In this document: positions 694 through 55,040 of the stretch, piece by piece
How positions within the stretch are numbered: the first letter of the stretch is position 1
How the letters are laid out: each line of letters begins with the position of its first letter
Assembly (NCBI GenBank): GCA_000004985.1
Contig: GG738929.1
DNA: 64,000 nucleotides
Origin: Naegleria gruberi
Taxonomy: Eukaryota
Strand: one strand, 5' to 3'
Translations under genes and position numbers: made by a program
Notes under the pieces: generated by a model
Seen by the model: only the letters and a program-made list of their open reading frames with translations
Databases searched by the model: none
Told to the model about the DNA's origin: nothing

Positions 694-1988
694 CTGAATT
701 TTTTTAATTATTTACAATTTTAAATGTGAAAAATGTTAGACAGGTGGTAGAGCATTAACAAGACTCCAAAAGATTAGAAGGAAACAATCGGTAAGTTTCG
801 TTTAAGCCATCATCAGTTTCATCTAACTAAATTTATTGTAACACTGTAATGTCAATCATTAAGACTCCATTAATAGGTTTCTACCAGTTGGTAAATTAGG
901 AACAACCATGTTGCTACTAGCAATTGAAATCTTGTCAAGTTCTGCTTGATAGGTATTTGCATAGGAACGTAAATTTGTGAACACAGTATCAAGGGTTGTT
1001 GTTGTCAATACTATATTATGCAGGTGGGGGTATGTTCAGTATTTTGTTGTTCTCAAAAGCCACAAAAAAAATTTACAAGTCCAATAAAAAACATATTTTG
1101 CAAATATCAGGTCTTTTACTTTGTGGAAGAACACAAAAAATGACAAATAAAACTCAATGGATGATACTCTCTTTTTATTCATCTTTTCGATTTGTTTTTA
1201 ATGAGAAAATTGATTTTGAGGTGTTTTGCAAGATTTATTCACTTATTTTACACCAACAACAAAACCAAAAATGCAATCAATAAAAAATATTGTGATTTTT
1301 TGGCAATCAATTTTTGGCTGGATTTTGTTCATGTTATTAAAGCTGTGCACTACTACATAAAATTGAGACCAGGTAGAAGTACACACAATACATCAAATCG
1401 TTCTAGTTGATCTCTAGAATTTGATTTTAGGTTGCGTGAGATTCTAGTATCTATAGTTTTGGAATTTGAATTGTTTTTAAGAAAAAAGAATCATCTTGGC
1501 CCAGTTTCTTGCTGAAGGTGAGTTTGGAAAACTGAGAGCAGTTGGATGAAGAGAGAATACACTAACATACGCAATACTGGGTCTAGTTTTCAAAAATCTT
1601 GTCGTCATGATTCTAGTATATCCCCTTTACATCGAACTCAACACTCGTATATGATTTTCTCAATATATACACAATAAAATCAATATGTCACAAGGCAATA
1701 ATATAGATGCACATAAATATTAGTAAATTTGAAATATTTACTGGTTTTTGTTGTTTATTGGTTGAGCTATTGAATTTTACCATTAATTTTCGCTAGCGGC
1801 AAGTCAACATTCCCCTCCCTTGATATTATTTGAGTTGAATAAATTCTGTAGTCACCTTACATGATTTAGCATAGACCATACGATTAGTTTTTTCTGTTCA
1901 TTTGCAGCCGGAATATCTTTTTTTATTATATTTTGAAAGGTTTGCTTTTGGAGCTGACACCCTAATATTAATCAACAACTCAATTTTC

Positions 1989-4900
1989 ATGAATAAGTCG
2001 TCATCTAAAAAAATGGAACAAGCCACCAGTTCTGAACCCACAGCAAACAAACAGTTTCGTGCTTACGTTACACAGCAAATATCTTCAATTCCAACAGCAT
2101 CACCAACATGTGCCAACTTTGCTGAACAACAAGATGTAGAAGAAGATCATGACTATCACACAAATGTCAACATTTATTGCCCTCATTGTAAATCATTTTT
2201 CTGTGAAAACTGTCATTCGTTATGTGTTTATTCTTCCTTGGAATCCAACAGTAAAATTCCCATGTCAAAAAAGAAAACAGTACAGGCCGAACATTTAAAA
2301 CATCAGTGGAATATCAATGAGGATTATCAACAAAATATCCAACAAGATGTGATGCAATTATTCATCGTTACGAACAATCTGGTTAGTATGATACAACGAT
2401 GGACAAATGACACAACTAACGTCAATCTACAGGACATTATTGACCAATACGAATTATTTAAAACAGCCACAAGCAAACATATCATCACTCCCTATTTCAA
2501 TAGAACATTTTTAGAACCGCTGACCCCTATTTGTGAAAAAATTTCTATTTTCCACAAAGCACAAGAACAGGTCAACAAATTCTCTGAAATGTTTAAAAAA
2601 TACAATAACAAAGCTCTTGATATAATGGATAGCTTTACTTTGGCTTCCACTGAAATGCGATCATTTTGTAAATCATACCTTAAGATTTCTAATGACAAAA
2701 TGGAGGAATATTTATCTCTAGCAAACACAGCAGAAAAGCTTAAATGGAATGCCATTAATTCCAAAAATCCAATGAAGTGTTGTGTTGTGGGAATTACTAA
2801 TTCTGGTAAAACTACTTTAATGAATGCAATTCTTGGAATGAACCTTTTGCCAAGTAAGGAAGGGAGATGTACAATTGCTAATACAGAATTAAGATATGCA
2901 GATTATGATAAACGTAAAATTGAAATCAAGGAAGAACATGGTACTTTCAACACACTTTCTCAATTTACTTCAGAGTATCTGATGCAACATGAATCAATTC
3001 CTGAAGAAGTTGTATCTACTTTTGGTGTTTCTGAAAAAACCAAATCAGAACAGAAGAAGGATAGAGAATCTCAAAAAACTATAAGAGTTCATTGGGATTC
3101 TCTCTTGTTAAAAACAGGAATAGCCTTTAGTGATACACCTGGATATGATGATATTTATGAAGAGGAAGTTTTATTCAACACTTACAAAAGACAATCAAAG
3201 AAAAAAGCTTTGCCTAAAAATGTAATGGTCAACCCTCAAACATTAGAATTTATTCAAGAATCTGAACTTGTTATTCTAGTAGTTGATATTAATCACACAT
3301 ATACTTCCAAAGATGCTGTTCTAAACTTGTTGGACATTGATGAATTAAAAGGCAAACAAATCATGGTTGTGATGAATAAGTGTAACATGTTTGGAAGTAT
3401 TGGAAAACGTGAAGACAGAGGTTGGGAAAGTTTCATTCACTATTGTGAAGAATATGAAAATACAAAAACTGCATCATCACCTCCATTATTATTACAATTT
3501 TACAAAATGGTAAACAATACTCATGAAAAAGCTAGAACAACATTTGAAGCATGTCTGCTTAATCATATTGATATGATGAGTACAAAAGGTATTTCTGTAA
3601 ACCAAATATATCCATTATCTGCTATGGAATCCCTTTGTTGTAAAGTAGAAGGAACTGAATTGGATTTGCCGTTCACTCTATTTGAAAAAGCACTATTTAA
3701 TATTATGGAAGATATTACAAAGAAGCGTATGTCTAATTTTGCTTCTGTTGCACACTTTTCAGTCAATACATTCCTGAGATCAACTTTGCTATGCAAAAAT
3801 TGGCATGTAAAGATGTATCAAATGCAACTCGAAAAGAAAAAACAACTGGAGGACATATCAAGTCTTGTTGAAAAGTTCAGAGAACGAATTCAACAAATTA
3901 TTCAAGATTTAAGGCAGGACATTATTGAAGTTTTTGAGAGAACATCGAGTCAAAGTAGTTCCAAGAAAATTGAAGAAGCCATGCATATTATTCACACAAA
4001 AGTTTCTGTTGAATTTAAAGAATTCTTGAAGGAACGTATTGCACAAGATCCCAAGTTATCTGTTTCAGATTGGGCCTACATAATTTCCATAACAATATTT
4101 GCAATTCCTATTTCAATAATTTTGCTTGGTATTGCGGTTCTATTAGTCCCAGTGTTGATGCCTATCATGTTTCCATATGTAATGGTAAAAACAATTTTGG
4201 ACATGGTAACAGATTTAAAAAAGAAAAAGAAGAGCAATATTATTGATGAACTAGTTTATAAAAGTGAGAGAATTCAAGTAAGTGAGGAAGAATCAGATAG
4301 TGCTGAAAACGATACTGATGACGTTCCAGAAGTACTCTCCACAACATTATTGGCTCTTGATTCACAAAATCTAGATGTAAATCAAGTCATCCAAAAGATA
4401 ATGCAGAGTTATCCTGATATGTTTTGTCTAGAAATTGAAAAGCATCTAATATCTAAAGTTGAAAATGAGTACAACGACAAACTGAAAACATTTAACTTTG
4501 TACTTTGTAAAGATGGGAAAGAATTAGCATTTTTTAATGCCTGGAAAGAGTTTCAAAAAGATCAGAATGGATGTGAACAGCTTTACAATTACTATTGCAA
4601 GACTTCATCTTTGTTTTTTGATATTAACACAAAATTTTCACTTTCAAATTTGAAATCTTTTGAATTTTGTGGACACGGAGCATTTGGTAAAACCTATCGT
4701 TTAAATAATATTACTGCAATCAAGTATATTTCTACAATTAAGCTTGCTGAACATATTTTAGATAGAGAACTATTTTATAATTCACAACTTTCACATGCAC
4801 ATATTGTTAAAAGCATGCTAATTAAAAAGGAAGAAACTGAAAACGCTTTAAACGGTTACATTTATCAAGAGTATCTCCCACAAACTCTTTCACAATGGGC

Positions 4901-5483
4901 TCTGAACAAACCAATTAACTATAAGAAAGCTCTTAGATATGCTTGTGAAATAGCACTTGGTATGAAATATATTCAATCTTGTAATATCATGCATAGAGAT
5001 TTAGACAAGTCAAACATTATGATTGACAAATTTGATCATATCAAAATTATTGATCTAGGTGTAGCAAAAGAAATGGTTGATAATGCACACACAGCAAATC
5101 AAGGAAAATATAAAACAATGGCACCAGAAGTAAAACGCTCTGGATCTGACTTTGCAATTTATGATTTTAGATGTGACGTTTATTCCTTCGGAATAGTGGT
5201 TAAAGAATTGCTTGATGGTTATGACAGTAGTGAAATTTCATTATTATTAGAGAGATGTTTGGAGAAAGATTTTAAGAATAGAATTGGTGATTGGAATGAA
5301 ATAATATTTACTTTATATAAGAGTTATGAGATGTATGAATTAGATGTGGAACCAACTGAATATTCTAACCAATTGAAAATTGAGGTACAGGAAGTTCAAG
5401 AAGAATCACAAATTGATATTGAGGTATTGAAAAAGGAATTGAAAGATAAGAAAATCATACCAAAAAATTGCATTGTGCAATAA
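1989..5483 (+). CDS. multidomain signalling protein: B-box-like Cys/His zinc finger, P-loop GTPase (ROC/AIG1/IRG-like, DTPG type), predicted TM segment, C-terminal TKL-like protein kinase
   Basis: Track ORF 1902..5483 starts at TTG. The first ATG is at 1989 (MNKSSSKK). Zn-finger-like: YCPHCKSFFCENCHSLC. GTPase: G1 VVGITNSGKTTLMNAILG, G3 FSDTPGYDD, G4-like VVMNKCNMF. Hydrophobic stretch: AYIISITIFAIPISIILLGIAVLLVPVLMPIMFPYVMV. Kinase motifs: GHGAFGKTY, AIKYI, HRDLDKSNIMID, DLGVAKE, MAPEV, DVYSFGIVV. Single exon, TAA stop. Confidence 0.7.
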   Translation: MNKSSSKKMEQATSSEPTANKQFRAYVTQQISSIPTASPTCANFAEQQDVEEDHDYHTNVNIYCPHCKSFFCENCHSLCVYSSLESNSKIPMSKKKTVQAEHLKHQWNINEDYQQNIQQDVMQLFIVTNNLVSMIQRWTNDTTNVNLQDIIDQYELFKTATSKHIITPYFNRTFLEPLTPICEKISIFHKAQEQVNKFSEMFKKYNNKALDIMDSFTLASTEMRSFCKSYLKISNDKMEEYLSLANTAEKLKWNAINSKNPMKCCVVGITNSGKTTLMNAILGMNLLPSKEGRCTIANTELRYADYDKRKIEIKEEHGTFNTLSQFTSEYLMQHESIPEEVVSTFGVSEKTKSEQKKDRESQKTIRVHWDSLLLKTGIAFSDTPGYDDIYEEEVLFNTYKRQSKKKALPKNVMVNPQTLEFIQESELVILVVDINHTYTSKDAVLNLLDIDELKGKQIMVVMNKCNMFGSIGKREDRGWESFIHYCEEYENTKTASSPPLLLQFYKMVNNTHEKARTTFEACLLNHIDMMSTKGISVNQIYPLSAMESLCCKVEGTELDLPFTLFEKALFNIMEDITKKRMSNFASVAHFSVNTFLRSTLLCKNWHVKMYQMQLEKKKQLEDISSLVEKFRERIQQIIQDLRQDIIEVFERTSSQSSSKKIEEAMHIIHTKVSVEFKEFLKERIAQDPKLSVSDWAYIISITIFAIPISIILLGIAVLLVPVLMPIMFPYVMVKTILDMVTDLKKKKKSNIIDELVYKSERIQVSEEESDSAENDTDDVPEVLSTTLLALDSQNLDVNQVIQKIMQSYPDMFCLEIEKHLISKVENEYNDKLKTFNFVLCKDGKELAFFNAWKEFQKDQNGCEQLYNYYCKTSSLFFDINTKFSLSNLKSFEFCGHGAFGKTYRLNNITAIKYISTIKLAEHILDRELFYNSQLSHAHIVKSMLIKKEETENALNGYIYQEYLPQTLSQWALNKPINYKKALRYACEIALGMKYIQSCNIMHRDLDKSNIMIDKFDHIKIIDLGVAKEMVDNAHTANQGKYKTMAPEVKRSGSDFAIYDFRCDVYSFGIVVKELLDGYDSSEISLLLERCLEKDFKNRIGDWNEIIFTLYKSYEMYELDVEPTEYSNQLKIEVQEVQEESQIDIEVLKKELKDKKIIPKNCIVQ

Positions 5484-20412: not shown

Positions 20413-21570
20413 ATGCCCTTTAATAACACCTACACTCCTCAAACTGATAATAACAACCATATGGTGGCACCACTTCCTTCCGATTCAGAGTTGATATATA
20501 TCAGCAATGAAGCAACAACAAATAATACTGATATTTACATTAGCTATAATCCAAGTAGCTATCAAGAGCAACCTCCTCCTTCCTTTAGTACAGCCTTAAA
20601 TGATCCCTCCGAATCACAACCATCAGCAGCTATTTTCTATCAAACACAAGTAAACAGCAGCTACGGCAATATGGAAGATAGTAGTAGTGCAATAGTTTAT
20701 AATCAAGCTTACCCATCTCTTCCTGTATTAATATCAGAAAATGAAGAAATATCAAATTCAACAAAGGTTCAACCTATTATTATTAATCTTAAACAAGATC
20801 CAAGCATAATTCCATCACATAGTAATGTTACTGTTTGTGATAATACAACCCCTTACCAAGTAGTTGTTGATCATTCTGCAATTAATATGAACATTAATTC
20901 CTATGTACCAGCCTCAAATCCAACAAGCAGTAATAACAATTCTCATTTTGGTGGACCTTTGATGAAGTTGGTCGATTTTCTAATGTTTGTAAGAACTTTA
21001 AGGTCCTCTGACTTTAATAGACATAAGAGAAATGGACAGCAACTTATCAACATAACTTTACTATCGACATTCATTGGTGTTGGCACCCTTATTGCATGTG
21101 CAGTTTTATTTGGAATAGCTAATGGAGATATTGTTATGATTAATGATGACACAGCTGTATCTTATATTCATAAAGGATGCTGTGACATTACCAAACATAC
21201 GTGTGATGGGACTGGCTATTGTAATTTAATTATAGCATTTCCTCCTCTCAATGCAGAATTTGCTAAGGATAATTCACATGGATATAATATTAATTGTAAG
21301 AGTTTTGATTCTTTGAAGAAAAAAACCTTGACATTCTCTCAACAATTAACATATCCAACAGCTGACATGACTTGGCACGATATTGATTGTTACACGAATA
21401 AGGAAGAAACAATAGCTAGGATTGAGACACCTTTTAGTGAACTCTATGCCTCCTATAGAGTTGGAGGGACAATTTGTGCTTGTATTGGAGGGACATCGAC
21501 TGCATTAGCAATGTCCATGATTTTCTTAATGTGTAAAACAATAATTAATAAGTATAAAAGTTCTTACTAG
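20413..21570 (+). CDS. hypothetical membrane protein (Ser/Thr/Asn-rich N-terminus, two predicted TM helices flanking a Cys-containing loop)
   Basis: ATG 20413, TAG stop, 385 aa. TM candidates INITLLSTFIGVGTLIACAVLFGIANG and ICACIGGTSTALAMSMIFLMC. Loop with KGCCDITKHTCDGTGYCN. No recognised domain. Confidence 0.5.
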   Translation: MPFNNTYTPQTDNNNHMVAPLPSDSELIYISNEATTNNTDIYISYNPSSYQEQPPPSFSTALNDPSESQPSAAIFYQTQVNSSYGNMEDSSSAIVYNQAYPSLPVLISENEEISNSTKVQPIIINLKQDPSIIPSHSNVTVCDNTTPYQVVVDHSAINMNINSYVPASNPTSSNNNSHFGGPLMKLVDFLMFVRTLRSSDFNRHKRNGQQLINITLLSTFIGVGTLIACAVLFGIANGDIVMINDDTAVSYIHKGCCDITKHTCDGTGYCNLIIAFPPLNAEFAKDNSHGYNINCKSFDSLKKKTLTFSQQLTYPTADMTWHDIDCYTNKEETIARIETPFSELYASYRVGGTICACIGGTSTALAMSMIFLMCKTIINKYKSSY

Positions 21571-21624
21571 TGAAGATTCGTTGGTGGTTAACTGATATTA
21601 AAATATTTTCATAATGAATAAGAT

Positions 21625-21696
21625 TCCCGTGTAGTCCAATGGCTAGGATACCTGGCTTTCACCCAGGAGGTCCGGGTTCAATTCCCGGCATGGGAG
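21625..21696 (+). tRNA. tRNA-Glu (anticodon TTC)
   Basis: TCCCGTG-TA-GTCC-AATGGCTA-GGAT-A-CCTGG-CTTTCAC-CCAGG-AGGTC-CGGGT-TCAATTC-CCGGC-ATGGGA-G. 7-bp acceptor stem (one G.U), anticodon loop CTTTCAC gives UUC, T-loop TTCAATT. T-run follows 10 nt downstream. Confidence 0.9.
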
Positions 21697-21795
21697 AATC
21701 ATTTTGCTTTTATCAATTTTCTAATTTATACAAAGAGAAAAGGATTCAGTATTTTCTGTTTGCAACCTAGTTGTTAAATATTTTAGTATCATAAT

Positions 21796-21914
21796 CGGCT
21801 ACGGCCATATCACGATGAATGCACCTCATCCCGTCCGATTTGAGAAGTTAAGCATCGTCGAGCCACATCAGTACTGAGGTTGGAGACAACTTGGGAACCT
21901 GTGGTGCTGTAGTC
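21796..21914 (+). rRNA. 5S ribosomal RNA gene
   Basis: cGGCTACGGCCATATCACGATGAATGCACCTCATCCCGTCCGATTTGAGAAGTTAAGCATCGTCGAGCCACATCAGTACTGAGGTTGGAGACAACTTGGGAACCTGTGGTGCTGTAGTC. Same length, helix order and conserved blocks as eukaryotic 5S (GCCATA.CAC, CCGATCTC/TTGAG, AAGTTAAGC, AGTACT, GGGAA.ACC.GGTGCTGTAG). Followed by the TTTTT Pol III terminator at 21915..21919. Confidence 0.9.
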
Positions 21915-21919
21915 TTTTT
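21915..21919 (+). terminator. Pol III T-run terminator of the 5S gene
   Basis: gtcTTTTTa immediately 3' of the 5S sequence. The same 25-bp flank (TCTTTTTATTTTCCTTATTATCTGT) is shared by the inverted second copy. Confidence 0.5.
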
Positions 21920-22178
21920 ATTTTCCTTATTATCTGTGTTTTTTATTTATTGTTGTGCATTGATGAGAGGAAATGTGTGTTGGTCAATTTGAGAGTTTTC
22001 AAAAGTGGTTCGAATCAAAAGTTCCTTTACAGTTTGTTTCAATTCCAAATGTTTCTATTATTTAACAGAGCGAGAAATCAGATGAATACTCACAGGAAAA
22101 AATTGAGAAGAAGGGCAACAACCACTTTGATTATTTCTTAATATAATTATATGTGAAGAAAACTCACTTTCAAAAAAA

Positions 22179-23613
22179 ATGATCAAACGAAGCAGACAAG
22201 ATTTTGAAAATCCATTAATTTCGGAGGAACTACTCATGATCAATAATAATAACATGGAAGAGAAAGCAAAAAAGAAAAAAGTTGTACAAGAAATATTTTC
22301 AGATGACGTTTGCTTTGAAATAATTTCCATGATTGATTCGTGGTTTATTTTGAATAATTGTTCCTTGATTTCAAAACAATTCTTTAATGTGATCAAGGAA
22401 CGTTCAAAACTTGTTATTCAATTTAAAAAAAAATTTACAGAGAAAAGAATTGAATTATTAATGAAAAGTCAATTTATGAATAGTATTGTTAACGTTAAAT
22501 TTTCGAGAAAGTTGCTTGACTCTATAGAACAAGCCAAATTCATAAATGAAATGAAGCAATTAACATCACTTGATATTGGTGGAAATCAAATTGGTGCTGA
22601 AGGAGCCAAATTTATAAGTGAAGTGAAACAATTAACATCACTTAATATATCTTACAATCAAATTGGTGCTAAAGGAGTCAAATTCATAATTGAAATGAAA
22701 CAATTAAAATCACTTAACATTATTGGAAATCAAATTGGTGCTGAAGGAGTCAAATTGATAAGTGAAATGAAACAATTAGCATCGCTTAATATTGGTGGAA
22801 ATCAAATTGGAGATGAAGGGGTCAAATTCATACTTGAAATGAAACAATTAACATCACTTAATATTTGTCTCAATCGAATTGGTGCTGAAGGAGCCAAACT
22901 CATAAGTGAAATGAAACAATTAACATCACTTGATATTTGTTACAATCGAATTGGTACTGAAGGAGTCAAATTTATACGTGAAATGAAACAATTAAAATCA
23001 CTTAATATTAGTGGAAATCAAATTGGTGATGAAGAAGCCAAATTCATAAGTGAAATGAAACAATTAACTTCACTTAATACTTATAAAATCAAATTGGTGA
23101 TGAAGAAGCCAAATTCATAAGTGAAATGAAACAATTAACATCACTTAATATTTATAAAAATCAAATTGGAGATGAAGGAGTCAAATTCATAAGTGAAATG
23201 AAACAATTAACATCACTTAATATTTTTACAATCAAATTGGTGATGAAGGGGTCAAATTCATAAGTGAAATGAAACAATTAACATCACTTAATATATCTTA
23301 CAATCAAATTGGTGATGAAGGAGTCAAATTCATAAGTGAAATCAAACAATTAAAATCACTTGATATTTATAACAATCAAATTGGTGATGAAGGAGCCAAA
23401 CTCATTAGTGAAATGAAACAATTAACAGCACTTAATATTTATAACAATCAAATTGGCGATGAAGGAGCCAAATTCATAAGTGAAATGAAACAATTAACAG
23501 CACTTAATATTTATAGCAATCGAATTGGTACTGAAGGAGTCAAATTGCTAAGCGAAATGAAACAATTAACAGCACTTGTTATTAATAACCAACAGATGAA
23601 ATCTATTAATTAA
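22179..23613 (+). CDS. RNI-like leucine-rich-repeat protein built from about 14 tandem 24-aa (72-bp) repeats. The frame is broken twice (about 23095 and 23225), so this is a pseudogene or a mis-assembled repeat array
   Basis: Repeat unit EMKQLTSL(N/D)I(G/S)(G/Y)NQIG(A/D)EG(A/V)KFIS. Track ORFs 22179..23120 and 23269..23613 are the same array in different frames. The breaks coincide with single-base length differences inside otherwise identical repeats (tataaaatcaa vs tataaaaatcaa). Confidence 0.55.
22540..23590. repeat. 72-bp near-perfect tandem repeat array (coding LRR units)
   Basis: Unit aaatgaaacaattaacatcacttaatat...aatcaaattggtgatgaaggagtcaaattcataagtga recurs head-to-tail with few substitutions. 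Confidence 0.8.
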
Positions 23614-24155
23614 AATCCAAAAAAAAGGATTTGGCATTACAAACGAAGAGAGGAGATTGGCTACCTGGTATCCAGAACGAAAGGTCTCAACACATTATTC
23701 CTATTGCATTAATTTTGCTAGAATGTATTTTAAAGGTCCAATTTCAATGAAGAGTTACTGAAATCATCAGATTGGACAGTTAAGATTGTGATTGTCGGTG
23801 GAATAAAGAAGAAAAAGATTTTACGCGTATGGGCTGTACTTTGATGATTCTTCGAGTGATTTCACATACTGAAGCTACCAAACTTTCACAACATCACCTA
23901 TATACTATTACTAGTGATTTTTGTTTGTGGATTATCATCAAACAACTCTCCAAAAAGCAAATCTTAGATAAAATTGAATCATAGAAAGTAAATTGTTGAA
24001 ACATTAGCCAACTAGAATTATTCCACCATTAGAGACAACTGAAGGAGAATCTGTTCCCTGAAAATAGTTACAGAACAGAATACTCCAAACAAGGAGGTTA
24101 TCTCAATCCAACCAATATTTCAAACAATTATTACAGATAATAAGGAAAATAAAAA

Positions 24156-24273
24156 GACTACAGCACCACAGGTTCCCAAGTTGTCTCCAACCTCAGTACT
24201 GATGTGGCTCGACGATGCTTAACTTCTCAAATCGGACGGGATGAGGTGCATTCATCGTGATATGGCCGTAGCC
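24156..24273 (-). rRNA. 5S ribosomal RNA gene, second copy, inverted relative to the first
   Basis: gactacagcaccacaggttcccaagttgtctccaacctcagtactgatgtggctcgacgatgcttaacttctcaaatcggacgggatgaggtgcattcatcgtgatatggccgtagcc is the reverse complement of the 21796..21914 sequence (near-identical). A-run (T-run on the coding strand) at 24151..24155. Confidence 0.85.
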
Positions 24274-25065
24274 ATTCATAATAATTTGGATATAAATCAA
24301 ATTTATACCAATTTTTTTAATCTCTATTCCTTACTTTGTGAAAAATCCTTTTCTTGACTCCCTGTTCCACTCGCTTCTCTAAAGAATTTGGTATCTTAAA
24401 CAATTTCAATATTTGAAGACTCAAATTCGAAAGGATAAATAGCTATCACCCATCAAGCTCTTAAACAACAACTTGCTGAACCAGCAACAATCAGATTAGC
24501 TTCCTTTGTCTATTTAAAATAAATGAAACCAAGTAGTTACATCAATAATATGAAATTAGTTTTCTTTCTATTAACATTTCATGGTTGTTTGAATTGCTAA
24601 AATGTATCGTAAAAATTTTATGTTTCCAGAATTAATATACCGAAGCGATTTTATTAAGAAAACTAAATTGCTATTACCACAAAGTCTACCAAATATTTCC
24701 TCTATCCAATTAAATATTTAGGCATATTGTTCACCCCACAGTTTCTAAATATTAATATTGAGGGTAACAGTTGTTCATTCAAGTTGAGATTCGAATAAGT
24801 TTTTAAGCTGATACTTCGGAATTGATGTTGCTTCATCTGTCTTAAGGTCTAAGAATGTGGAATATATTTGGATGAGATTAAATTCCTATTAAATTCCTAT
24901 CTGGAGAGCAAACTCAAAAACCAGAATCTTGCAGCTTGTGAATTTCATTACGAATTATGACAATTGGAAAATAGACTATTTCCCCAGCACCAACTAACTT
25001 TGCCGAATAGAGATCGTTCTAAGTATTATCGTGTTGCTCTGTTTCCCTATGTTAAAGAATAAATA

Positions 25066-29488: not shown

Positions 29489-31732
29489 ATGAACCCCAAG
29501 CCGACTCTATTTCTCGTTTTTCTTCTTTTCGTTAATCTATTGTCTTGCGTATTTGGACAGACCACCACCTACAATATTACTACTATTGCTGGTGGTGGCA
29601 CAGGAGAAGGCGGTCCAGCAAGTACTGCCTTTTTATATACGCCAAACAGTGTGGCATTTGGTCTGAAAGGCGAATTGTACATTGCCGACGATTATAGAAT
29701 TCGTAAAATAGAGAATAATACCATTACAACTATAGTAGGGAGTGCCAGTAAGGGCTTTAGTGGAGATGGTGGGCTCTCCACTCTGGCTAAGGTGCAAAAT
29801 CCAACTGGCATCGTTGTTGGCACTAGAGGTGAGATTCTTTTTGTGGATTCTGATAGAATTAGAAAGATAGAGAATGGTATTATTACAACCATTGCTGGTA
29901 CTGGTGATTCAAGATTTGGTGGAGATGGTGATTTAGCAACGAAGGCACAACTAAATTCTCCTAGAGGTATCGCGATTAGTTCAACAGGTGAAATTTATAT
30001 TGCTGACACTTATAACCATAGAATTCGTAGAATTGCATTGAATGGTACCATTAATACTGTAGCAGGTACTGGTGATTCAAGATTTGGTGGAGATGGTGAT
30101 TTAGCAACGAAGGCGCAACTAAATTATCCTATGGGTATCGCGATTAGTTCAACAGGTGAAATTTATATTGCTGACACTTTTAACGAAAGAATTCGTAGAA
30201 TTGCATTGAATGGTACCATTAATACTATAGCAGGTACTGGTGTCTTAGGACTTAGTGGAGATGGTGATTTAGCAACGAAGGCACAACTAAACACTCCTAG
30301 AGGAATCGCGATTAGTTCAACAGGTGAAATTTATTTTGCTGACACCAGTAACCAAAGAATTCGTAGAATTGCATTGAATGGTATCATTGATACTATAGCA
30401 GGTACTGGTGATCCAAGATTTGGTGGAGATGGTGATTTAGCAACGAAGGCACAACTAAATTCTCCTAGAGGTATCGCGATTAGTTCAACAGGTGAAATTT
30501 ATATTGCTGACACTTATAACCAAAGAATTCGTAGAATTGCATTGAATACTAATATTTCAACCTTTGCCGGTAGTGGGTTTGGATATAGTGGATATGTTGG
30601 AGATGGTGGTTTATCTACTGATGCCCTATTGAATACACCCTTATCTGTAGCTTGTAGTTCAAATGGGGAAATTTATATTGCTGACACTTATAACCATAGA
30701 ATTCGCAAAATTTCACTTAATAATACCATTACAACAATTGCTGGTACTGGAGACAGTGGGTTTAGTGGTGATGGTGGTTTGGCTATCAATGCAAGATTAA
30801 GTTCACCTGCAGATATTGTTGTTAATTCAAATGGTGTAATTTACTTTTCTGATTACGATAATAACAGAATTCGTAAAATAGCATCTAATGGTATTATTAC
30901 AACCGTTGTAGGATCAGGTGTAATTGGAAGTGGGGGCGATGGTGGTTTAGCTATTAATGCCCAACTTAATCGACCTTATGGAATTACATTTAATTCAAAT
31001 GCAGAAATGTACATTGTAGAAAGAATGGGTAGCAGAATTCGTAAAGTTGGTGTAAATGGTATTATAACAACCGTTGCTGGAAGTGATATAGCAAGTGGGG
31101 GAACAACCAGCGTTGGTAGTTTGGCAACTAAAACTGTACTGAATGCACCTTCAAAAATTGTCATTAACTCTAACAATGAGATAATCTTTTCAGACTCGTT
31201 ACACGGTAGAGTTCTTAAAATTGGTTTAGATGGTATTATTAGTGGAGTTGGAAATAGTTTTCGTATGCCCATTGGTATAGCAATAGGTTCAGATGGTGAA
31301 ATGTATATTGCTGATACGAGCATTTTTGCAATACTTAAAATTGACAAGAAAGGAGTGCTTTCAACTATTGTAACTGGATTGGAATCTCCACGTGGCATTA
31401 CATTAGATTCAAAGGGTAATATTTATGTCACAGATTTATATGTTATACATAAAATAACACCAGGTCAACAACCATCTCCCTATAAATCCACTCAACCTGA
31501 TACTTCAATGAAACCAACTCAGCCTGATACTTCAATGAAACCAACTCCTGGAATATCAAGCAAACCAACTCCTGGAATATCAAGCAAACCAACCCCAGGT
31601 CTCTCATTAAAACCAGCCCAGTCAATGAATGTTCCTACACCAAAAAATAGTGAAAGAGTTTCAGAAGCTCTTTCAGTTGTATCTGGTTGGCTTTTTACTT
31701 TTATAATCTTTATTTCAGTTTTCCAATTTTAG
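29489..31732 (+). CDS. secreted NHL-repeat (6-bladed beta-propeller type, about 11 repeats) protein with C-terminal Pro/Thr-rich mucin-like repeats and a hydrophobic tail (GPI-anchor-like)
   Basis: Signal peptide MNPKPTLFLVFLLFVNLLSCVFG. Repeated GEIYIADTYNHRIRRIALNGTI units (NHL signature). C-terminal KPTQPDTSMKPTQPDTSMKPTPGISSKPTPGISSKPTPGLSLKP, then SVVSGWLFTFIIFISVFQF. Single exon. Confidence 0.8.
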   Translation: MNPKPTLFLVFLLFVNLLSCVFGQTTTYNITTIAGGGTGEGGPASTAFLYTPNSVAFGLKGELYIADDYRIRKIENNTITTIVGSASKGFSGDGGLSTLAKVQNPTGIVVGTRGEILFVDSDRIRKIENGIITTIAGTGDSRFGGDGDLATKAQLNSPRGIAISSTGEIYIADTYNHRIRRIALNGTINTVAGTGDSRFGGDGDLATKAQLNYPMGIAISSTGEIYIADTFNERIRRIALNGTINTIAGTGVLGLSGDGDLATKAQLNTPRGIAISSTGEIYFADTSNQRIRRIALNGIIDTIAGTGDPRFGGDGDLATKAQLNSPRGIAISSTGEIYIADTYNQRIRRIALNTNISTFAGSGFGYSGYVGDGGLSTDALLNTPLSVACSSNGEIYIADTYNHRIRKISLNNTITTIAGTGDSGFSGDGGLAINARLSSPADIVVNSNGVIYFSDYDNNRIRKIASNGIITTVVGSGVIGSGGDGGLAINAQLNRPYGITFNSNAEMYIVERMGSRIRKVGVNGIITTVAGSDIASGGTTSVGSLATKTVLNAPSKIVINSNNEIIFSDSLHGRVLKIGLDGIISGVGNSFRMPIGIAIGSDGEMYIADTSIFAILKIDKKGVLSTIVTGLESPRGITLDSKGNIYVTDLYVIHKITPGQQPSPYKSTQPDTSMKPTQPDTSMKPTPGISSKPTPGISSKPTPGLSLKPAQSMNVPTPKNSERVSEALSVVSGWLFTFIIFISVFQF

Positions 31733-43196: not shown

Positions 43197-46100
43197 ATGA
43201 TTAACACAGGGAAGAGTGAGAGTCCTACATTTCGGAAAGATGCTCACTGCCCAGAGAGAAGACATGCAGTAGTAGGCGTTGATCCATTCAACAATAATTT
43301 ACAAACAAAATCTGAAACTTTCTCTTGGCTTCAAAAAGAAAATAACAAGACTGACGATAAATTCCTATTACCAAATAACAGCAGTTCTTCTACTGCAAAT
43401 GATACACATAGACTCTCTTCCGGAGATTTGGTAAATTCAATTACTGTTGAAGATGAAGGAGCAAAAAAAGTTTTGGTTGTAGATGATGATCGGGTAGCTC
43501 GTCAAGTTTTAACCAAGCTCTTGGAACAACTTGGTTTTCAAGGTATGTAATCTTCATTTGAATGTAATATGTTTATCTCTGATTGTATGACATTAATGCA
43601 TGACCTTACAACGCTCATTACATTTATGGTGTCTCTACAAAACGTACATGTAGTGAAAGCTGTCGAGGGAGGTAAACAAGCATTGGAAGTGTTAAGAGAA
43701 GAGGGTAATAATTATCATCTTCTCCTTGTAGATGTACTCATGCCTGATATGGATGGATTGCAACTGCTTAAAATTTTCAGACAAGCCTACTCTGAAGACA
43801 TGCCAATAATTAGTATGTATTTTAATGAATATGTTTTTGTTAACACGTTGGATAATAGTGGTTTCATCAAGTGAGGACCCCGATACAATTAATCAATGTT
43901 TCCAAAGTGGAGCTGAAGACTTTTTACAAAAGCCTGTTCAATTAGAAATTTTGAAAAGAAGAGTTAATATGTGTCTTGAGGACAGACTCAGACGCAGAAA
44001 AGAAAAAGCATATCAAGAAATGCTCCAAAATGAAAGAATCAATAGAAAGAAACTTACACTTCGTGTAAAGGAGCAAGAAAAGGAATTGGAAGAAATTAAG
44101 AATCAAATTAATAATACTGTAGAAACACCAATGCAGGTTGTTATGAAAACCATTGCTGATCTTATGGAAGGAAAGTATTCAATTGAAAATTCTAAGGGAG
44201 CTTTGATTGCTGTCCTTAGGTCACTAGGTTCTAAGGATTTATATAAACCAGCATTTTCCAATTTATTAAGAAAGGGAGAATTGGACGACAATACTAGAAG
44301 ATGGCTCCAAACAGAATTCATGAACGAAGGAGACAATAATGTAAATGGCAACAAATCTAACACACCAATATCTAATGAATCATCACCAACTACCGAAAAA
44401 AATTCACAACAAACTAAGGAGCAATCACAATCTTCATCAGCATCTAATCAACAAGTTTCATTATATCACAAGCAAGTTGATGATATTGTAACCAAAAACA
44501 CTTTACCAGGTGATTTAGGAAGTCATACATTTGATACTTTGAAATACTCACATGATCAATTAATCCAATTCATTGTCCAAATGTTTGAAAACTTGGGATT
44601 AATTGAAACATTCAAAATTCCACCAAAAGAACTTGTTGATTTATTAACAGTCGTAAGAGAATCATACAAACACAACCCATACCACAATTTTACTCATGCT
44701 GTAGATGTAACTCAATTTGCTTACCACCTTCTTCTTGTAGATAGAATTTCACAAATGTTTTCACCAATGGAAAAGTTTGCTCTGATGTTTTCTGCCATAA
44801 TGCACGATGTGGGACATCCTGGAGTTAACAATAACTATTTAATTAATATTAAGGATGAATTGGCTCTCATTTACAATGATGTTAGCGTGTTAGAAAATCA
44901 CCATGCATCACAAGCCTTTTACCTCCTTCTCAAACATAATATTTGCTCCAATCTTTCCAAGGATGAATTCAAAGAGTTCAGAAGACTGGTTATCAGTACA
45001 ATTTTATGTACAGACATGTCTCACCACTTTGAAATTCTCACCAAGTTCCAAACAAGACTTCAAACTGGTACGCTCTCTAAGGAAAGTAAGGAAGATAGAC
45101 TCCAACTGATGGGAGTAATTTTAAAGTGTTCTGACGTCAGTAATGCTCTCAGACCATTTGACGTTTCTGAAAAGTGGTCAAATGTCTTGTTGGAAGAATT
45201 TTTCTTACAGGGAGACAGTGAGAGAGACCGTGGATTACCAATCTCTCCTCTAATGGACAGAAGATCTGTTGACAAACCAAAGTCCCAGCTTAACTTTATT
45301 GATTACATTGCTGCACCACTTTTCAACAATTTAATCACTTATTGCTCATGCTTGAACACAACACTCGGAGAAACTTTGCAAAAAAATAGATCCTTGTGGG
45401 AAGAGAGGGCACAAGCTGCTTCGGGCATGGGAAGTAATCAACAAAAAGAAGATATTAGTAGTACCCATACAACAACAACAACAAAAAATACAATAACTAC
45501 AACAACAACAACAAAAACCTCCACTACAACAACTACAACAAATTCACAAGAAAAACCTGTACTCACTGGATCAATGCCAAGTCATTTCGCTAAAGCCAAA
45601 GGATTTACCATCCTGATTATTGATGATGAAAGTGCTCAATGTGCAAAGAAATTAGAACAACCTTTACTTTCACTTAGTTATACAGTTGTATCAACAACAT
45701 TAGCAAAAACCGAGAGTGAATTAGTCAAGTCAAAAGCAGACATTATTCTTTTAAATTACGATATTGTACAATCAACAGAATTGGTGCAAAAAATTAGATT
45801 GGTATCTCCGATTATACCTATAATTACAATTTCTTCCAATTCTGTACAAACCGATTGGTGCCAACAAAGTTTTGTAAGACCAGTAGACACTACAGCATTG
45901 ATTCACTCTGTTGAACATCATATTGAATTATCATTGGATAGGGTACAACCAATAGATTTGGAAATTGCTCTTGAGCAAACAGGTGGAGATGAGGAATTCT
46001 TGTGGGATATGTTGAATGAACTTATTGGTGCAGGAAGTGAGCAAATCGAGAAAATTAAACAATCAACAAAGACTTTGGATTGGGCATCTATGGAGCTTAA

Positions 46101-46281
46101 TTCTCACTCTCTGAAAGGTTCATCAGCACAGCTTGCTTGCAAACCATTATCGCAAGCTGCTTTATCAGTGGAAACGAGCTCTAAGAATCAAGACTCTGCA
46201 AATCTTGAACAAAAGATTGCTTTAATAGAAAAACGACTCAACGATTTAGCTAACTTTGTACAAAAACATCAGCAACAATGA
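43197..46281 (+). CDS. RegA-like two-component cAMP phosphodiesterase with fused phosphorelay module: receiver (REC) - class I 3',5'-cyclic-nucleotide PDE - second REC-like domain - HPt. 3 exons: 43197..43542, 43654..43812, 43859..46281. Introns 111 nt (GTATGT...GTAG) and 46 nt (GTATGT...AATAG)
   Basis: REC1, spliced across both introns: KVLVVDDDRVARQVLTKLLEQLGFQ|VKAVEGGKQALEVLREEGNNYHLLLVDVLMPDMDGLQLLKIFRQAYSEDMPII|MVSSSEDPDTINQCFQSGAEDFLQKP. PDE: YHNFTHAVDVTQFAYHLL...HDVGHPGVNNNYLINI (class I HD signature)...DMSHHFE. REC2-like: GFTILIIDDESAQ...ADIILLNYDIVQ...PIITISS...FVRPVD. HPt: MELNSHSLKGSSAQLACKPLSQAA. Total about 975 aa. Track ORFs 43197..43550, 43569..43874 and 43825..46281 are the three exons. 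Confidence 0.8.
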
Positions 46282-50263: not shown

Positions 50264-51703
50264 TTAATCAATTTGTCTTCTGAGATATGGCAAAGCAATT
50301 CTGAAGAGCTTTTCATAATCAATCTTATCAGCTTCTTCGTCCCAGTTGTTATTAATATAACCCTTAACACCTTCCTTCAAATATGGGAGAGCAGCACGCA
50401 AAATTTCCTTGAATTTGATTTCAGCATCAGCTTCTTCTTGGTATTCAGCAGAAGCAGAAACGAGGTTCTTAAGATATTCCTTACCAGTCTTCTTGAGTTC
50501 ATCACGAACAACCTTCCAGATCTTCTTCAAGAACTTGTCAGATTGTGGCATATCTTCCAATGGAATACCGAATTGAGAGGTCAAATAAGCCTTACCCAAA
50601 CCCTTAGCAATACCAACGGCCTTCTTGAAGATCTTACCGAGCTTGAGGTCAGACATTTCTTCATTTTGGTCCCAGTTGTTGTTAATATATTCCTTAACAC
50701 CAGACTTGATGTATGGCAAAACCTTCTTCCAGATCTTACCTAACTTGAGCTTTTGAGCATCAGCAGCAGAGTCAAAGTTTTGGTTGACATATGACTTGAC
50801 AGCACCCTTTCCGATATCCTTAACAACCTTCCAGACCTTACCCCAGAATTTGTCAGACAATTCCATTTCTTCATCCCAGTTTTGATTGACATAATCCTTG
50901 GCAGCATTCTTTCCGATATCCTTAACAACCTTCCAGATTGAACTGAAAAACTTTTTATCAGCTTCTTCGTCGAAATTGTTAGCAATGTAGTTCTTAACAC
51001 CAGCCTTGATGTATGGCAAAATGGTCTTGATGACTTCAGACCACTTCTTGTCAGCCATTTCTTCAGCATCCCAGTTGTTATTAATATATTGTTTAGCACC
51101 TTCCTTCAAGTATGGGAGAACAGCCTTGAACAATTTACCCAATTTGAGATCAGCTTCTTCTTCTGGAATTTCATCCCAGTTCTTGTTGACGTAATCCTTG
51201 ATGGCAGCTGTTGGTAAATATTTGATAGGTAAAGATTATCGATACAGAGGTGATGATATCGAGATTCGAATAAAATTGTTATTAGAATCGAATAGTGACA
51301 GAAGATCAGAATCATCGGTTAAAAATAATTTCCAGTCCACAAAACGATATCATTGATGATAATATCAAATAAACAATAACCAGTTATCCTCATCATTTTC
51401 ATATTACTACTTACCCTTTCCAATTTCACCGACAACCTTCAAAGCCTTCTTCCAGAATGACTTGTCAGCCAATTCTTCATCAGTCAAAATGTAGTTAGCA
51501 GGAGTACGAATCAATCTCTTGATGAGAGCAGGGGAAAGAACCAAATCAGCTTGTTCTTCAACAACAGCTGGTTGTTGTTTCAAGAAATTCTTGAAGAAAA
51601 TTGACAATTCTTGATCAGCTTGTTCAGTAACTTGAGCAGAGACTGCAATAGTTGCGAACAAGGCGACGAGCAAGAGAGCAAGTAATTGCTTGGAAACGTT
51701 CAT
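50264..51703 (-). CDS. secreted repeat protein: signal peptide plus about 10 tandem 33-38-aa Lys/Trp-rich amphipathic units separated by acidic NNNWDEE-type linkers. 2 exons: 51703..51415 and 51207..50264; intron 51414..51208, 207 nt, GTAAGT...AACAG
   Basis: Signal peptide MNVSKQLLALLLVALFATIAVSAQV. Units such as KFWGKVWKVVKDIGKGAVKSYVNQNFD and KIWKKVLPYIKSGVKEYINNNWDQNEEMSD. No Cys. Splicing joins ...FWKKALKVVGEIGK|AAIKDYVNKNWDE..., preserving the repeat phase. Total about 410 aa. Track ORFs 50144..50743(+) and 50740..51099(-) are out-of-frame or antisense shadows of this repetitive gene. Confidence 0.65.
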
Positions 51704-52987: not shown

Positions 52988-53062
52988 ACCCGCTACCAGG
53001 ACTTGAACCTGGATCATGCGGAATGAATAAGTCGCATATTCTAACCATTGAACTACAGCGGG
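52988..53062 (-). tRNA. tRNA gene with atypical anticodon arm. Anticodon unresolved, possibly Ile-UAU with a micro-intron, or a pseudogene
   Basis: Minus-strand read: CCCGCTG-TA-GTTC-AATGGTTA-GAAT-ATGCG-ACTTATTCATTC-CGCAT-GAT-CCAGG-TTCAAGT-CCTGG-TAGCGGG-T (75 nt). Acceptor, D and T arms are well formed (T-loop TTCAAGT). The anticodon stem ATGCG/CGCAT encloses a 12-nt loop ACTTATTCATTC instead of 7. Confidence 0.65.
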
Positions 53063-53144: not shown

Positions 53145-55040
53145 TTATTGAAAAAACTCTGGAAAATAAAAGTACAATATCATTCCTATAGTAGAAATGA
53201 TCAGGAATGAACTCATCCATGAAATGGAAGATGACTCTGGTTCACTTGTTGTTACCTCTTCATTTTCTTGAGTTTCTTCAACTTGTTCTTCCTCCTTATT
53301 GAGTTCCTCTATCTGATTCTTCAATTGTTTGTTTTCTTTTGTTAAAAGAACATTTTCTGCTTGAAGCTGTTTGATGATCTTTTCTTTTTGAAGAGTCATA
53401 TAAGTATCCTTCTTCAACTGAGATATCTGTTGATCCTTTTCTTGTATTTTTTGTAATAATTCTTGTTCGACTTCTGAGTTGGAAGTAGTATCTTGTTGTT
53501 TCTTATTGGATTTTACATCTTTTTGGGAGGAAACTGGTTGTTGAGAATGGGTTGTAGTCTTTTTGAAAATTGCTTCATAATTTTCAATTAAAAACTGACA
53601 AAAATCACAAACAATAGCGATTGTTTGTTGTTGATTTTTGAGTTGAGTTTTAAGAGAAAATCTTTGATATTCATCCATGTTCAATTTCTTTGAATCGCTC
53701 TCTGATGGAAGGTAGAGTAAATTAGGACCAATCACGATACCCATATTCTTACTTGTCATTTTAGTAAGTGTCACATTTTCTTCATTACAACAAATTTCAT
53801 GTAATAAATTCATGAGCTCTGACAATATCGATTTGTTACATTCTGGAAGGTCAATCATGAGAAGTTTGACCTTATCAATAAGAGTTTTGGTTTTTTCAGG
53901 AGTTCTTCCAGTAAACATTTCAATTACCTCCTCATACTTGTCAAATGTGAGTAAACATTCAGGTAAGTTTCTAATATAATGTTTGATTAAATCTGCAACT
54001 ACCATCACACCAAAACTTTGTGGAATTTCAATAGCCAAATCATTGTACATTTCTGGGAATGCCATAAAACTGTTAAACAATTTACACAACTCTAACACTC
54101 TTCTCTTTGAACCAGCCTCTCTGAATATTCCCAAAGTTTTCACACCCTTATTATCTCTCAAATATTTCAAACAAACTCTGAGAATGTATGGAACTTTGAT
54201 GGGATTTAACAATTCCTTACCTAATAAATCTCCACAAATTGGTTTTCGTGTACTGTCTTCCTTCTTTTCCAATTGTTTGTGATATTGTTGCATATTGAAG
54301 AGAGTTTCATTGAGGCAGACCATTGTTGGAGAGAGATTCATAACACAAACTCTTGACAAATCAATGGCAGGATTCAGTTCAATAAAGAGAAAATCATCAC
54401 TAATATGATCTACGTTGGAAAGGAATTCATTGGAAGATAATACATGACATAATTGATCCATGTTAGTACTATTTGAATTGAACATTTGAATTTCAATAAT
54501 TTGAAACAAGTATATAACTTACCATTCTCCAGCATAACTGAAAACAGTATCTGACATTTTCACCATCTTCTTTTTGATTTTCCCCTTTTGTTGCTCAGGA
54601 GGATTGAATAAATTATCGGCAGACAATTGACTATTCGAAGGAAGATTAGAATCCAAAACAGTACTCGATGGAGCAGTAGTGGTAGTTGTGGATGACGAAT
54701 TATTCATAATTTTCTTTTTGAGATTGAGTGAGGATCTTCCAATGTTAGTCAGAAAATTCTTCTTTTGTTTGGTTTTAACACACCACAATAGGAATGAAAC
54801 TTGTTGCTCCTTTTCGAGTGGTGATTGAGAGAATGTGGAGGCATACTCTGAAAAGATTTTAGAAATTGAGCTGTCAGGAGATTTGGCTGGCAGAAGGATT
54901 TGTAACTTTTCCTGAAGAGAGTCAAGAATATTGAGAAAGGTTATTTGTTTGTAGTTAGTATTGTTTGATGAAACGTTATCTAGGTAGATTGTTTCTGAAG
55001 ATAATTTGACAATAATCTTCGGGAGTGTGATTAGAGACAT
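53145..55040 (-). CDS. RhoGAP-domain protein with Ser/Thr-rich N-terminus, C-terminal coiled coil and tail-anchor TM. 2 exons: about 55040..54523 and 54468..53145; intron about 54522..54469, 54 nt, GTAAGT...AAATAG
   Basis: RhoGAP motifs: GIFREAGSKRRVLELCKLF...VMVVADLIKHYIRNLPECLLTFDKYEE...LMIDLPECNKSILSELMNLLHEICCNEENVTLTKMTSKNMGIVIGPNLL. Coiled coil: QELLQKIQEKDQQISQLKKD...KQLKNQIEELNKEEEQVEE. Tail: SSISWMSSFLIISTIGMILYFYFPEFFQ. Splice joins track ORFs 54519..55109 and 53145..54509: ...MSDTVFSYAGE|C|TNMDQLCHV... The first ATG in exon 1 is taken as the start. Coordinates near 55100 are plus or minus 1. Confidence 0.7.

Follow-up and report, generated by a model that had tools for sequence, protein, structure and literature searches.

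A tRNA-Glu(UUC) gene, two 5S rRNA genes on opposite strands (copies A and B), and an LRR gene between the 5S copies make up the locus described here (Table 1). The locus is part of the window, the whole 64-kb stretch of DNA analyzed, which we placed at Naegleria gruberi NEG-M scaffold_85:32001-96000. Two window ORFs (29489-31729 and 57602-59197) are identical to N. gruberi EFC36497.1 and EFC36503.1, whose scaffold is 189,881 bp long, and the acyl-CoA synthetase encoded at 18352-20346 matches, at 100% identity, an N. gruberi protein from the same scaffold as these two. The N. fowleri orthologue of this synthetase, 74% identical, has an entirely different gene neighborhood, with no 5S or tRNA gene within 10 kb.

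Table 1. Features of the locus, in window coordinates
Feature	Position	Strand	Basis and remarks
tRNA-Glu(UUC) gene	21625..21696	+	Rfam RF00005 full length, 67 bits; ARAGORN
5S rRNA gene, copy A	21797..21915	+	Rfam RF00001, 105.4 bits, model 1-120; points towards the LRR gene
141-nt module (5S gene + 22-nt 3' trailer)	21797..21937	+	equals the reverse complement of 24133-24273; alignment, 100% identical
LRR gene	22179..23613	+	three-frame ORFs; Pfam LRR_6 E=8e-34; N. gruberi paralogues
72-bp tandem array, 15 units	22527..23604	+	units cut in register
Frameshift 1, unit 8	23085..23088	+	A4 vs A5 in sister unit 9; 1-nt deletion, unit codons 19-20
Frameshift 2, unit 10	23223..23227	+	1-nt deletion at T-run, unit codons 18-19
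5S rRNA gene, copy B	24155..24273	-	Rfam RF00001, 105.4 bits, model 1-120; convergent with copy A

Pol III genes

The tRNA-Glu gene folds into a cloverleaf whose 7-nt anticodon loop carries TTC, an assignment already made in the initial annotation and borne out by two methods (ARAGORN, 21624-21697; Rfam, 21625-21696, 67 vs 29 bits). Two T4 runs, read from the sequence, follow it at 21702-21705 and 21708-21711, the first beginning 6 nt downstream. 5S copy A lies on the same strand beyond a 100-nt spacer.

Both 5S copies cover the full five-helix RF00001 model at a score far above the gathering score of 38, and their Rfam coordinates differ by at most 1 nt from those annotated initially. The 119-nt gene is identical in the two copies, which are separated by 2.2 kb. 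Identity runs for exactly 141 nt from +1, with 0 nt identical upstream of +1 by exact-run count; the shared 3' flank, first described as ~25 bp with a T5 run, does contain the T5 but measures 22 nt. In copy A, the terminator consists of this T5 (21915-21919) and a T4 (21921-21924), and both runs are also present in copy B. Both copies carry TTTTTATTTTCCTTATTATCTGT.

Apart from the 5S pair, the 64-kb window contains no long inverted repeat. No further 5S relic was found in the window, and a permissive Rfam scan of 21000-25000 returned no small RNAs beyond the three genes. With only two copies in 64 kb, on opposite strands, the arrangement differs from a classical tandem 5S array, which is head-to-tail with a fixed short period; the earlier description as three Pol III genes with the two 5S copies inverted stands. 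A bacterial promoter/terminator scan, irrelevant to a eukaryote, gave no excess over shuffles.

The LRR gene between the 5S copies

The LRR gene is composed of a family-specific N-terminal domain of ~116 aa, 15 GALA-like LRR units of 24 residues, and a tail LVINNQQMKSIN. The LRR profile PF13516 (LRR_6) matches twice (E=8e-34 and 2e-24), and a PDB profile search retrieves the GALA proteins 9j7j (E=9e-11) and 4xa9 (E=1e-5), with no match outside the LRRs. Paralogues in N. gruberi are 66-73% identical, and none of the protein database matches is an identical gene model.

TRF delimits the array at 22535-23589, with a period of 72, 14.7 copies, and 87% matches. The initial annotation counted ~14 near-perfect repeats; the 72-bp array is real and has 15 units, but "near-perfect" overstates their pairwise identity of 79-96%. 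Identity reaches 94-96% between units 8 and 9 and between units 10 and 11. Unit 8 (23031-23101) and unit 10 (23174-23244) are 71 nt long, each having lost one base at a short homopolymer. These two 1-nt deletions, correctly noted beforehand as two single-base breaks of the frame, split the gene into ORFs at 22179-23120, 23126-23263, and 23269-23613; the repaired gene would encode ~478 aa.

Two close paralogue models have frameshift-type ends ('IVLVMKEPSS' in P0001 and 'NPNW' in P0003), and several paralogue gene models are truncated inside their arrays. The frameshifted gene in the window is either a pseudogene of recent origin or the product of consensus error in an array that is hard to assemble. 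The Naegleria-specific GALA-like LRR family seems prone to frameshift or truncation in its 72-bp arrays, which affects the annotated gene count.

Within the N-terminal domain, an F-box-like motif (FSDDVCFEIISMID...LISKQFFNVI) is seen by eye only, and Pfam gives no F-box match there at E up to 10. In hhalign comparisons with P0096 and P0067, which both have an F-box among their precomputed Pfam domains, the LRRs alone aligned. AlphaFold pLDDT is <50 for residues 1-77.

Three LRR homologue loci from other Naegleria-like sources (L014, L015, and L017) have no 5S gene nearby, so the LRR family is not intrinsically tied to 5S genes.

The dispersed 5S family of N. gruberi

The 5S genes of N. gruberi are dispersed, with 279 putative copies listed by Feng et al. 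2012 (PLoS One 7:e36878; PMC3369914, Table S1), who also reported an internal control region, an upstream TATA-like box, and T-run terminators and found no TFIIIA in this species (PMC3369914). Parsing Table S1 and keeping copies of at least 110 nt left 264 copies on 113 scaffolds. The genome-wide count that the initial annotation called for is thereby available from the published list: ~264-279 copies on >100 scaffolds (PMC3369914). Copy A fits the entry scaffold_85 53800-53916 (window 21800-21916), and copy B fits 56154-56270 (window 24154-24270); these are the only two entries inside the window, in agreement with the Rfam scan. Both fall in the majority similarity class, which holds 157 of the 264 copies. 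The dispersed organization is already known, and both copies are catalogued.

Neighbor gaps of at most 6 kb number 35 among the 264 copies vs 5.7 expected, a six-fold excess, and about a quarter of the listed copies have a neighbor within this distance. Gaps of 1.1-3 kb account for 21, and the smallest spacing in the list is 1104 bp. Because gaps of 1-6 kb are enriched and none is shorter than 1.1 kb, single genes with a 5S gene on either side recur as a local pattern. Since N. gruberi 5S genes were already known to be scattered and about a quarter of them have a close neighbor, the arrangement in the window is the normal state of the species and not an oddity. Strong pairing at one-gene spacing, with no true tandem arrays, contradicts the "tandem" label given in PMC3369914 and hints at non-random dispersal of the 5S genes.

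A 27-nt 5S word was used to look for related 5S sequences in metagenome, prokaryotic genome, and viral collections. It occurred on 13 metagenome contigs, all with a single-copy 5S in unrelated flanks; contig L005 carries a Naegleria-like 5S with 1 nt different, and the other 12 come from another organism. The word had no match in the prokaryotic genome or viral collections.

Interpretation of the locus

We read the locus, with a probability of roughly 80%, as a normal nuclear locus of N. gruberi NEG-M in which three independent Pol III genes sit in two spacers around one protein-coding gene. The tRNA-Glu(UUC) gene and two majority-type 5S genes occupy consecutive intergenic spacers flanking the LRR gene. 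By analogy with Pol III biology, each small gene is probably transcribed singly, with internal promoter elements, an AT-rich upstream region, and its own T-run terminator. The 5S pair belongs to the dispersed family of ~270 copies, never head-to-tail and often in groups of two or three spaced by one gene length. The 141-nt module may be a DNA-level copy of a short module, or it may descend from a sub-family carrying the trailer. The bracketed gene is one of a Naegleria-expanded family that shares a conserved N-terminal domain, and it evolves by tandem unit duplication, as seen in the closeness of units 8/9 and 10/11. The locus matters little in itself: it is an example of the scattered 5S organization already known in Naegleria. 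Trailer identity and the sharp edge at the 5S +1 are unexplained by mere residence in neighboring spacers and call for a copying mechanism.

A local inverted duplication, in which one 5S gene served as template for the other, a few kb off (e.g., by template switching or ectopic repair), is a tentative possibility; such a pair could drive inversion of the 2.2-kb segment or, as the initial annotation also suggested, hairpin formation. The perfect 141-nt identity points to it, including as it does the 22-nt trailer beyond the T5, which is absent from the Naegleria-like 5S of L005, and the genome-wide six-fold enrichment of close 5S neighbors is consistent with it. However, flank sharing is limited to those 22 nt, and identity begins precisely at the first base of the gene. 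Identity of the 5S coding part is uninformative because 157 of the 264 copies share a similarity class, and it is expected by chance in ~35% of pairs. Genome-wide, same-class neighbor pairs number 12 vs 13.3 expected, class being a coarse proxy for sequence identity, and 23 of the 35 neighbor pairs certainly differ. The initial annotation took this view, proposing an inverted duplication nucleated on the 5S gene; as a segmental event this is not supported, with only the 141-nt module shared and identity ending at +1 and 22 nt past the gene. Nothing beyond 141 nt is common to both sites, which argues against any larger inverted segmental duplication.

We consider it improbable that the 5S spreads as a discrete ~141-nt module inserting preferentially into spacers beside existing Pol III genes. 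If it did, module insertion would explain why a tRNA gene and a 5S gene are adjacent here and why 5S-gene-5S brackets recur at six times the chance rate (35 pairs), and the 5S family would be Pol III-targeted and mobile element-like rather than passively scattered. Quite improbable, too, is a composite mobile unit formed by 5S-LRR-5S, or a 141-nt module that is itself mobile or retroposed and landed near Pol III genes. The module boundaries are sharp and start at the transcription start, the tRNA gene lies just upstream of copy A, and 5S neighbors tend to be spaced by one gene. The outer flanks also contain TCATAAT as a 7-nt direct repeat (21789-95 and 24276-82), but it falls 1 nt and 2 nt short of the two repeat ends instead of adjoining them, was found post hoc, and has a chance probability of 1-3% in AT-rich DNA. 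No transposase or reverse transcriptase is encoded nearby, nor a transposase ORF between the arms, and sequence inspection around either single module revealed no poly-A or clear target duplication. The trailer end in copy B does not coincide with a Pol III terminator, and the three LRR homologue loci lack 5S neighbors. A composite or TIR transposon is recognized by a target site duplication abutting its inverted repeats, together with a transposase or multiple genomic copies of the unit; the locus shows neither an abutting duplication nor a transposase.

An assembly artefact, with the second 5S copy or its inverted orientation misjoined, the LRR array collapsed, and the frameshifts arising as consensus errors, is very unlikely overall. 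For the array only, several features are compatible with it: a length of 1.06 kb with units 79-96% identical, both deletions at the codons that vary most between units and next to near-identical sister units, and the truncation of several paralogue models within arrays. For the 5S pair, the evidence points the other way, as both 141-nt arms are embedded in unique sequence on each side and pairs of 5S genes at one gene-length spacing occur 35 times across the assembly. The N. gruberi assembly was presumably built from Sanger reads, longer than the 141-nt arm, which we count against a 5S misjoin.

Yarrowia-type co-transcription, with the tRNA-Glu acting as promoter for copy A to compensate for the reported absence of TFIIIA (PMC3369914), is scarcely credible: the tRNA-Glu lies on the same strand as copy A and is among the Yarrowia leader tRNAs (PMC2566860), but its two T4 runs intervene in a 100-nt spacer that measures 4-7 nt in Yarrowia (PMC2566860), copy B has no upstream tRNA by ARAGORN or Rfam, and a tRNA is present on 0 of the 13 related 5S contigs.

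Comparison with known systems

The bracketed gene resembles GALA-type LRR proteins (PDB 9j7j, "GALA protein"; 4xa9, "Gala protein type 1, 3 or 4") in the shared 24-residue pattern LxxLxIxxNxIGxEGAKxI. It differs from them in its family-specific N-terminal domain and its frameshifts.

The tRNA-5S neighborhood recalls the dicistronic tRNA-5S genes of Yarrowia lipolytica (Acker et al. 2008, PMC2566860), with a tRNA upstream of 5S on the same strand, Glu as a leader, and TFIIIA dispensable or undetected in the organism. The Yarrowia dicistrons have no terminator between the two genes and are co-transcribed (PMC2566860), and the segment 21625-21915 lacks this short, terminator-free junction. Because of the 100-nt gap and the tRNA's own T-runs, tRNA-Glu and copy A do not form a Yarrowia-type dicistron.

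The closest precedent is the list of Feng et al. 2012, which covers the same organism and catalogues both window genes, in the majority class (PMC3369914). That list labels the arrangement "tandem" and gives coordinates without strands, flanks, or neighboring genes (PMC3369914). Its coordinates nonetheless include groups of two or three 5S genes separated by one gene length, and the convergent pair in the window is one such group. In Schizosaccharomyces pombe (about 30 copies) and Yarrowia lipolytica (108-109), too, 5S genes are dispersed: they are separate from the rDNA unit and stand singly between protein-coding genes, each a Pol III gene (PMC2566860). Compared with both, N. gruberi has a higher 5S copy number and marked local pairing.

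A tRNA-Glu gene and two convergent 5S genes sharing a 141-nt module

The tRNA-Glu(TTC) gene and the two oppositely oriented 5S rRNA genes of the initial annotation are confirmed by ARAGORN and Rfam, with 5S copies A and B facing inward. Alignment and exact-run counting reveal 100% identity of the two copies over exactly 141 nt (21797-21937 versus 24273-24133), a module composed of the 119-nt 5S gene and a 22-nt 3' trailer (TTTTATTTTCCTTATTATCTGT) past the last modelled base, with T5 and T4 runs in the trailer region. The shared 3' flank, put at ~25 bp including the T5 in the initial annotation, is thus real and measures 22 nt. Upstream of the first 5S nucleotide, the exact-run count gives zero identical bases between the copies, and flank similarity outside the module is at chance level in the alignment. 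The identical inverted copies are as first described, but the proposed inverted duplication nucleated on the 5S gene is not supported as a segmental event: the shared part is limited to this module. The whole 64-kb window contains no second long inverted repeat besides the 5S pair and no 5S relics.

Coordinates of the small RNA genes and of the LRR gene reading frames
Feature	Position	Strand	Support
tRNA-Glu(UUC) gene	21625-21696	+	ARAGORN and Rfam agree
5S rRNA copy A, full-length	21797-21915	+	Rfam, 105.4 bits (gathering score 38)
5S rRNA copy B, full-length	24155-24273	-	Rfam, 105.4 bits (gathering score 38)
LRR gene, first ORF (three frames of one gene)	22179-23120	+	
LRR gene, second ORF	23126-23263	+	
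LRR gene, third ORF	23269-23613	+	

N. gruberi 5S genes are dispersed and paired at one-gene spacing

Feng et al. (2012) catalogued 279 putative 5S genes in the N. gruberi assembly, featuring an internal control region, a TATA-like box and T-run terminators, and did not find TFIIIA (PMC3369914). With the window placed at scaffold_85:32001-96000, two Table S1 entries (scaffold_85 53800-53916 and 56154-56270; PMC3369914) map to window positions 21800-21916 and 24154-24270 and fit copies A and B; both genes are therefore already in the published list, and the locus is of a known kind. No further Table S1 copy falls within the window, in agreement with our observation.

Parsing Table S1 for copies of at least 110 nt gives a genome-wide count of 264 on 113 scaffolds, with a minimum spacing of 1104 bp. 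This spacing bears out the earlier view that the locus is not a classical tandem 5S array and, contrary to the 'tandem: yes' score (PMC3369914), leaves no head-to-tail array. Neighbour gaps of ≤6 kb number 35 versus 5.7 expected under random placement in 41 Mb, and 21 of these 35 span 1.1-3 kb, approximately one gene length. Given this excess, 5S genes in two consecutive spacers are a recurrent pattern, of which the window locus is one instance: N. gruberi 5S genes are dispersed, with pairing about one gene length apart rather than arrays. The initial interpretation is partly supported; it left out the background against which the locus is unremarkable.

A metagenome scan with a 27-nt 5S word matched 13 contigs, each with one 5S gene and none (0/13) with a tRNA gene. 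The 5S gene of the Naegleria-like contig L005 differs by 1 nt from that of the window, in unrelated flanks; the remaining 5S contigs belong to another organism and share just TTTT(ACT) 3' of the gene. Contigs L001-L004 and L006-L012 (VFQM01.../VFQO01...) each carry one related but distinct 5S copy in unrelated flanks, most with a TTTTACT trailer, and are a further case of dispersed 5S genes.

Origin of the 5S pair

Neighbouring 5S genes are no more alike in Table S1 similarity class than random pairs (12 same-class neighbour pairs versus 13.3 expected by permutation), and the copies certainly differ in 23 of the 35 neighbour pairs. The class of the window copies is common to 157 of the 264, and identity in their coding part is therefore a poor guide to a local origin; of the shared sequence, only the 22-nt trailer is informative. 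Most likely, either a short 5S module would have been copied into the neighbouring spacer, or two members of a trailer-carrying sub-family would have arrived independently. A composite transposon spanning the 5S-LRR-5S segment is weakly hinted at by TCATAAT, a 7-nt direct repeat in the outer flanks (21789-21795 and 24276-24282) resembling a target-site duplication; however, it does not abut the pair, lying 1 and 2 nt away from the 5S 5' ends, was spotted post hoc, and has a chance probability of ~1-3% (AT-rich 14-mers). Recombination between the 141-nt inverted repeats could plausibly invert the 2.2-kb segment.

None of the three LRR-homologue loci carries a 5S gene (Naegleria-like contigs L014 and L015, and L017, whose protein a source names N. 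fowleri). The gene neighbourhood of the N. fowleri acyl-CoA synthetase orthologue differs from that of the window, with no 5S or tRNA gene within 10 kb, and synteny therefore provides no dating. Two points stand out: the pairing of 5S genes one gene length apart, and the 141-nt module as a possible unit of their spread.

The enclosed LRR gene and its frameshifts

The LRR gene is composed of a ~116-residue N-terminal domain, 15 units that are each 72 bp or 24 residues long, and a tail (LVINNQQMKSIN). The array, initially described as ~14 near-perfect repeats, is upheld (TRF, 14.7 copies, 87% matches), but its units are 79-96% identical pairwise when cut in register, so 'near-perfect' is too strong. 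Pfam assigns LRR_6 (E=8e-34), and a profile of the family hits two GALA-type LRR proteins of solved structure, 9j7j and 4xa9. The nearest relatives are N. gruberi 'predicted proteins' (66-73% identity) with the N-terminal domain in common; no identical protein is on record among the database matches, which thus include no annotated gene model for the locus. An F-box-like motif in the N-terminal domain is seen by eye only: Pfam finds no match there at E up to 10, a PDB profile search matches only the LRR part, hhalign against LRR proteins with an F-box among their precomputed Pfam domains aligns the LRRs alone, and AlphaFold pLDDT is <50 for residues 1-77. P0037, an N. gruberi model on a 3,465-bp scaffold, has the first and third units of the LRR gene and its C-terminal tail, with only four units and a dissimilar N-terminus, a pattern suggestive of unequal crossing-over or of arrays exchanged among loci or haplotypes.

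The two single-base frame breaks noted initially reside in units 8 and 10, each 71 nt long: A4 at 23085-88 versus A5 in the sister unit, and one base missing at the T-run 23223-27. These independent 1-nt deletions, 140 nt apart, both fall in unit codons 18-20, the most variable positions of the unit, and units 8 and 10 are each closest to their right-hand neighbour (94% and 96%). The gene is otherwise intact and, with both deletions mended, would encode ~478 residues. The chances are about even between a very young pseudogene and a consensus error where near-identical units vary most. The assembly was presumably built from Sanger reads, and the array exceeds one such read. Among related N. gruberi models, P0001 finishes with IVLVMKEPSS, read in the -1 frame, and P0003 with NPNW, read in the +1 frame, both stopping inside LRR units with signatures matching the two breaks, and P0002 and P0007 end mid-unit. 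Because these close paralogue models also break off within their arrays, frameshifts or assembly errors in 72-bp arrays, whichever the cause, appear to be family-wide.

Genomic setting

The window is gene-dense with a GC content of ~33%. Two of its ORFs are letter-for-letter identical to N. gruberi EFC36497.1 and EFC36503.1, both encoded on a scaffold of 189,881 bp. The same scaffold carries the N. gruberi protein to which the acyl-CoA synthetase located upstream of the island is 100% identical. EFC36497, an NHL/teneurin-like repeat protein at 29489-31732 (+), contains 168-bp tandem units (~90% identity), and an ORF at 50264-51142 (-) has internal repeats of ~100-330 nt. Two unusual domain fusions occur: at 1902-5483 (+) a dynamin-family GTPase is joined to a protein kinase, and at 43825-46281 (+) a cyclic-nucleotide phosphodiesterase is accompanied by weaker matches to a receiver domain (below Pfam's cutoff) and an Hpt domain.

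A tRNA-like gene at 52988-53062 (-) scores 50.5 bits with Rfam tRNA and is called 'tRNA-???' with a 4-base anticodon by ARAGORN. It folds as a cloverleaf whose anticodon loop (ACUUAUUCAUUC) has 12 nt, and is 72% similar to tRNA-Glu across 67 nt. Candidate readings are a pseudogene, an unusual tRNA, or a gene interrupted by a very short intron.

Transcription of the small RNA genes

From the canonical structure of each small gene and its own T-run, we infer that tRNA-Glu and the two 5S genes would each be transcribed separately, as independent Pol III genes. In Yarrowia, co-transcription of a tRNA and a 5S gene depends on a 4-7-nt spacer that lacks a terminator (PMC2566860). In contrast, two T4 runs (21702-05 and 21708-11) follow tRNA-Glu, and 100 nt separate it from copy A, an arrangement that departs from Yarrowia-type co-transcription in both spacer and terminator.
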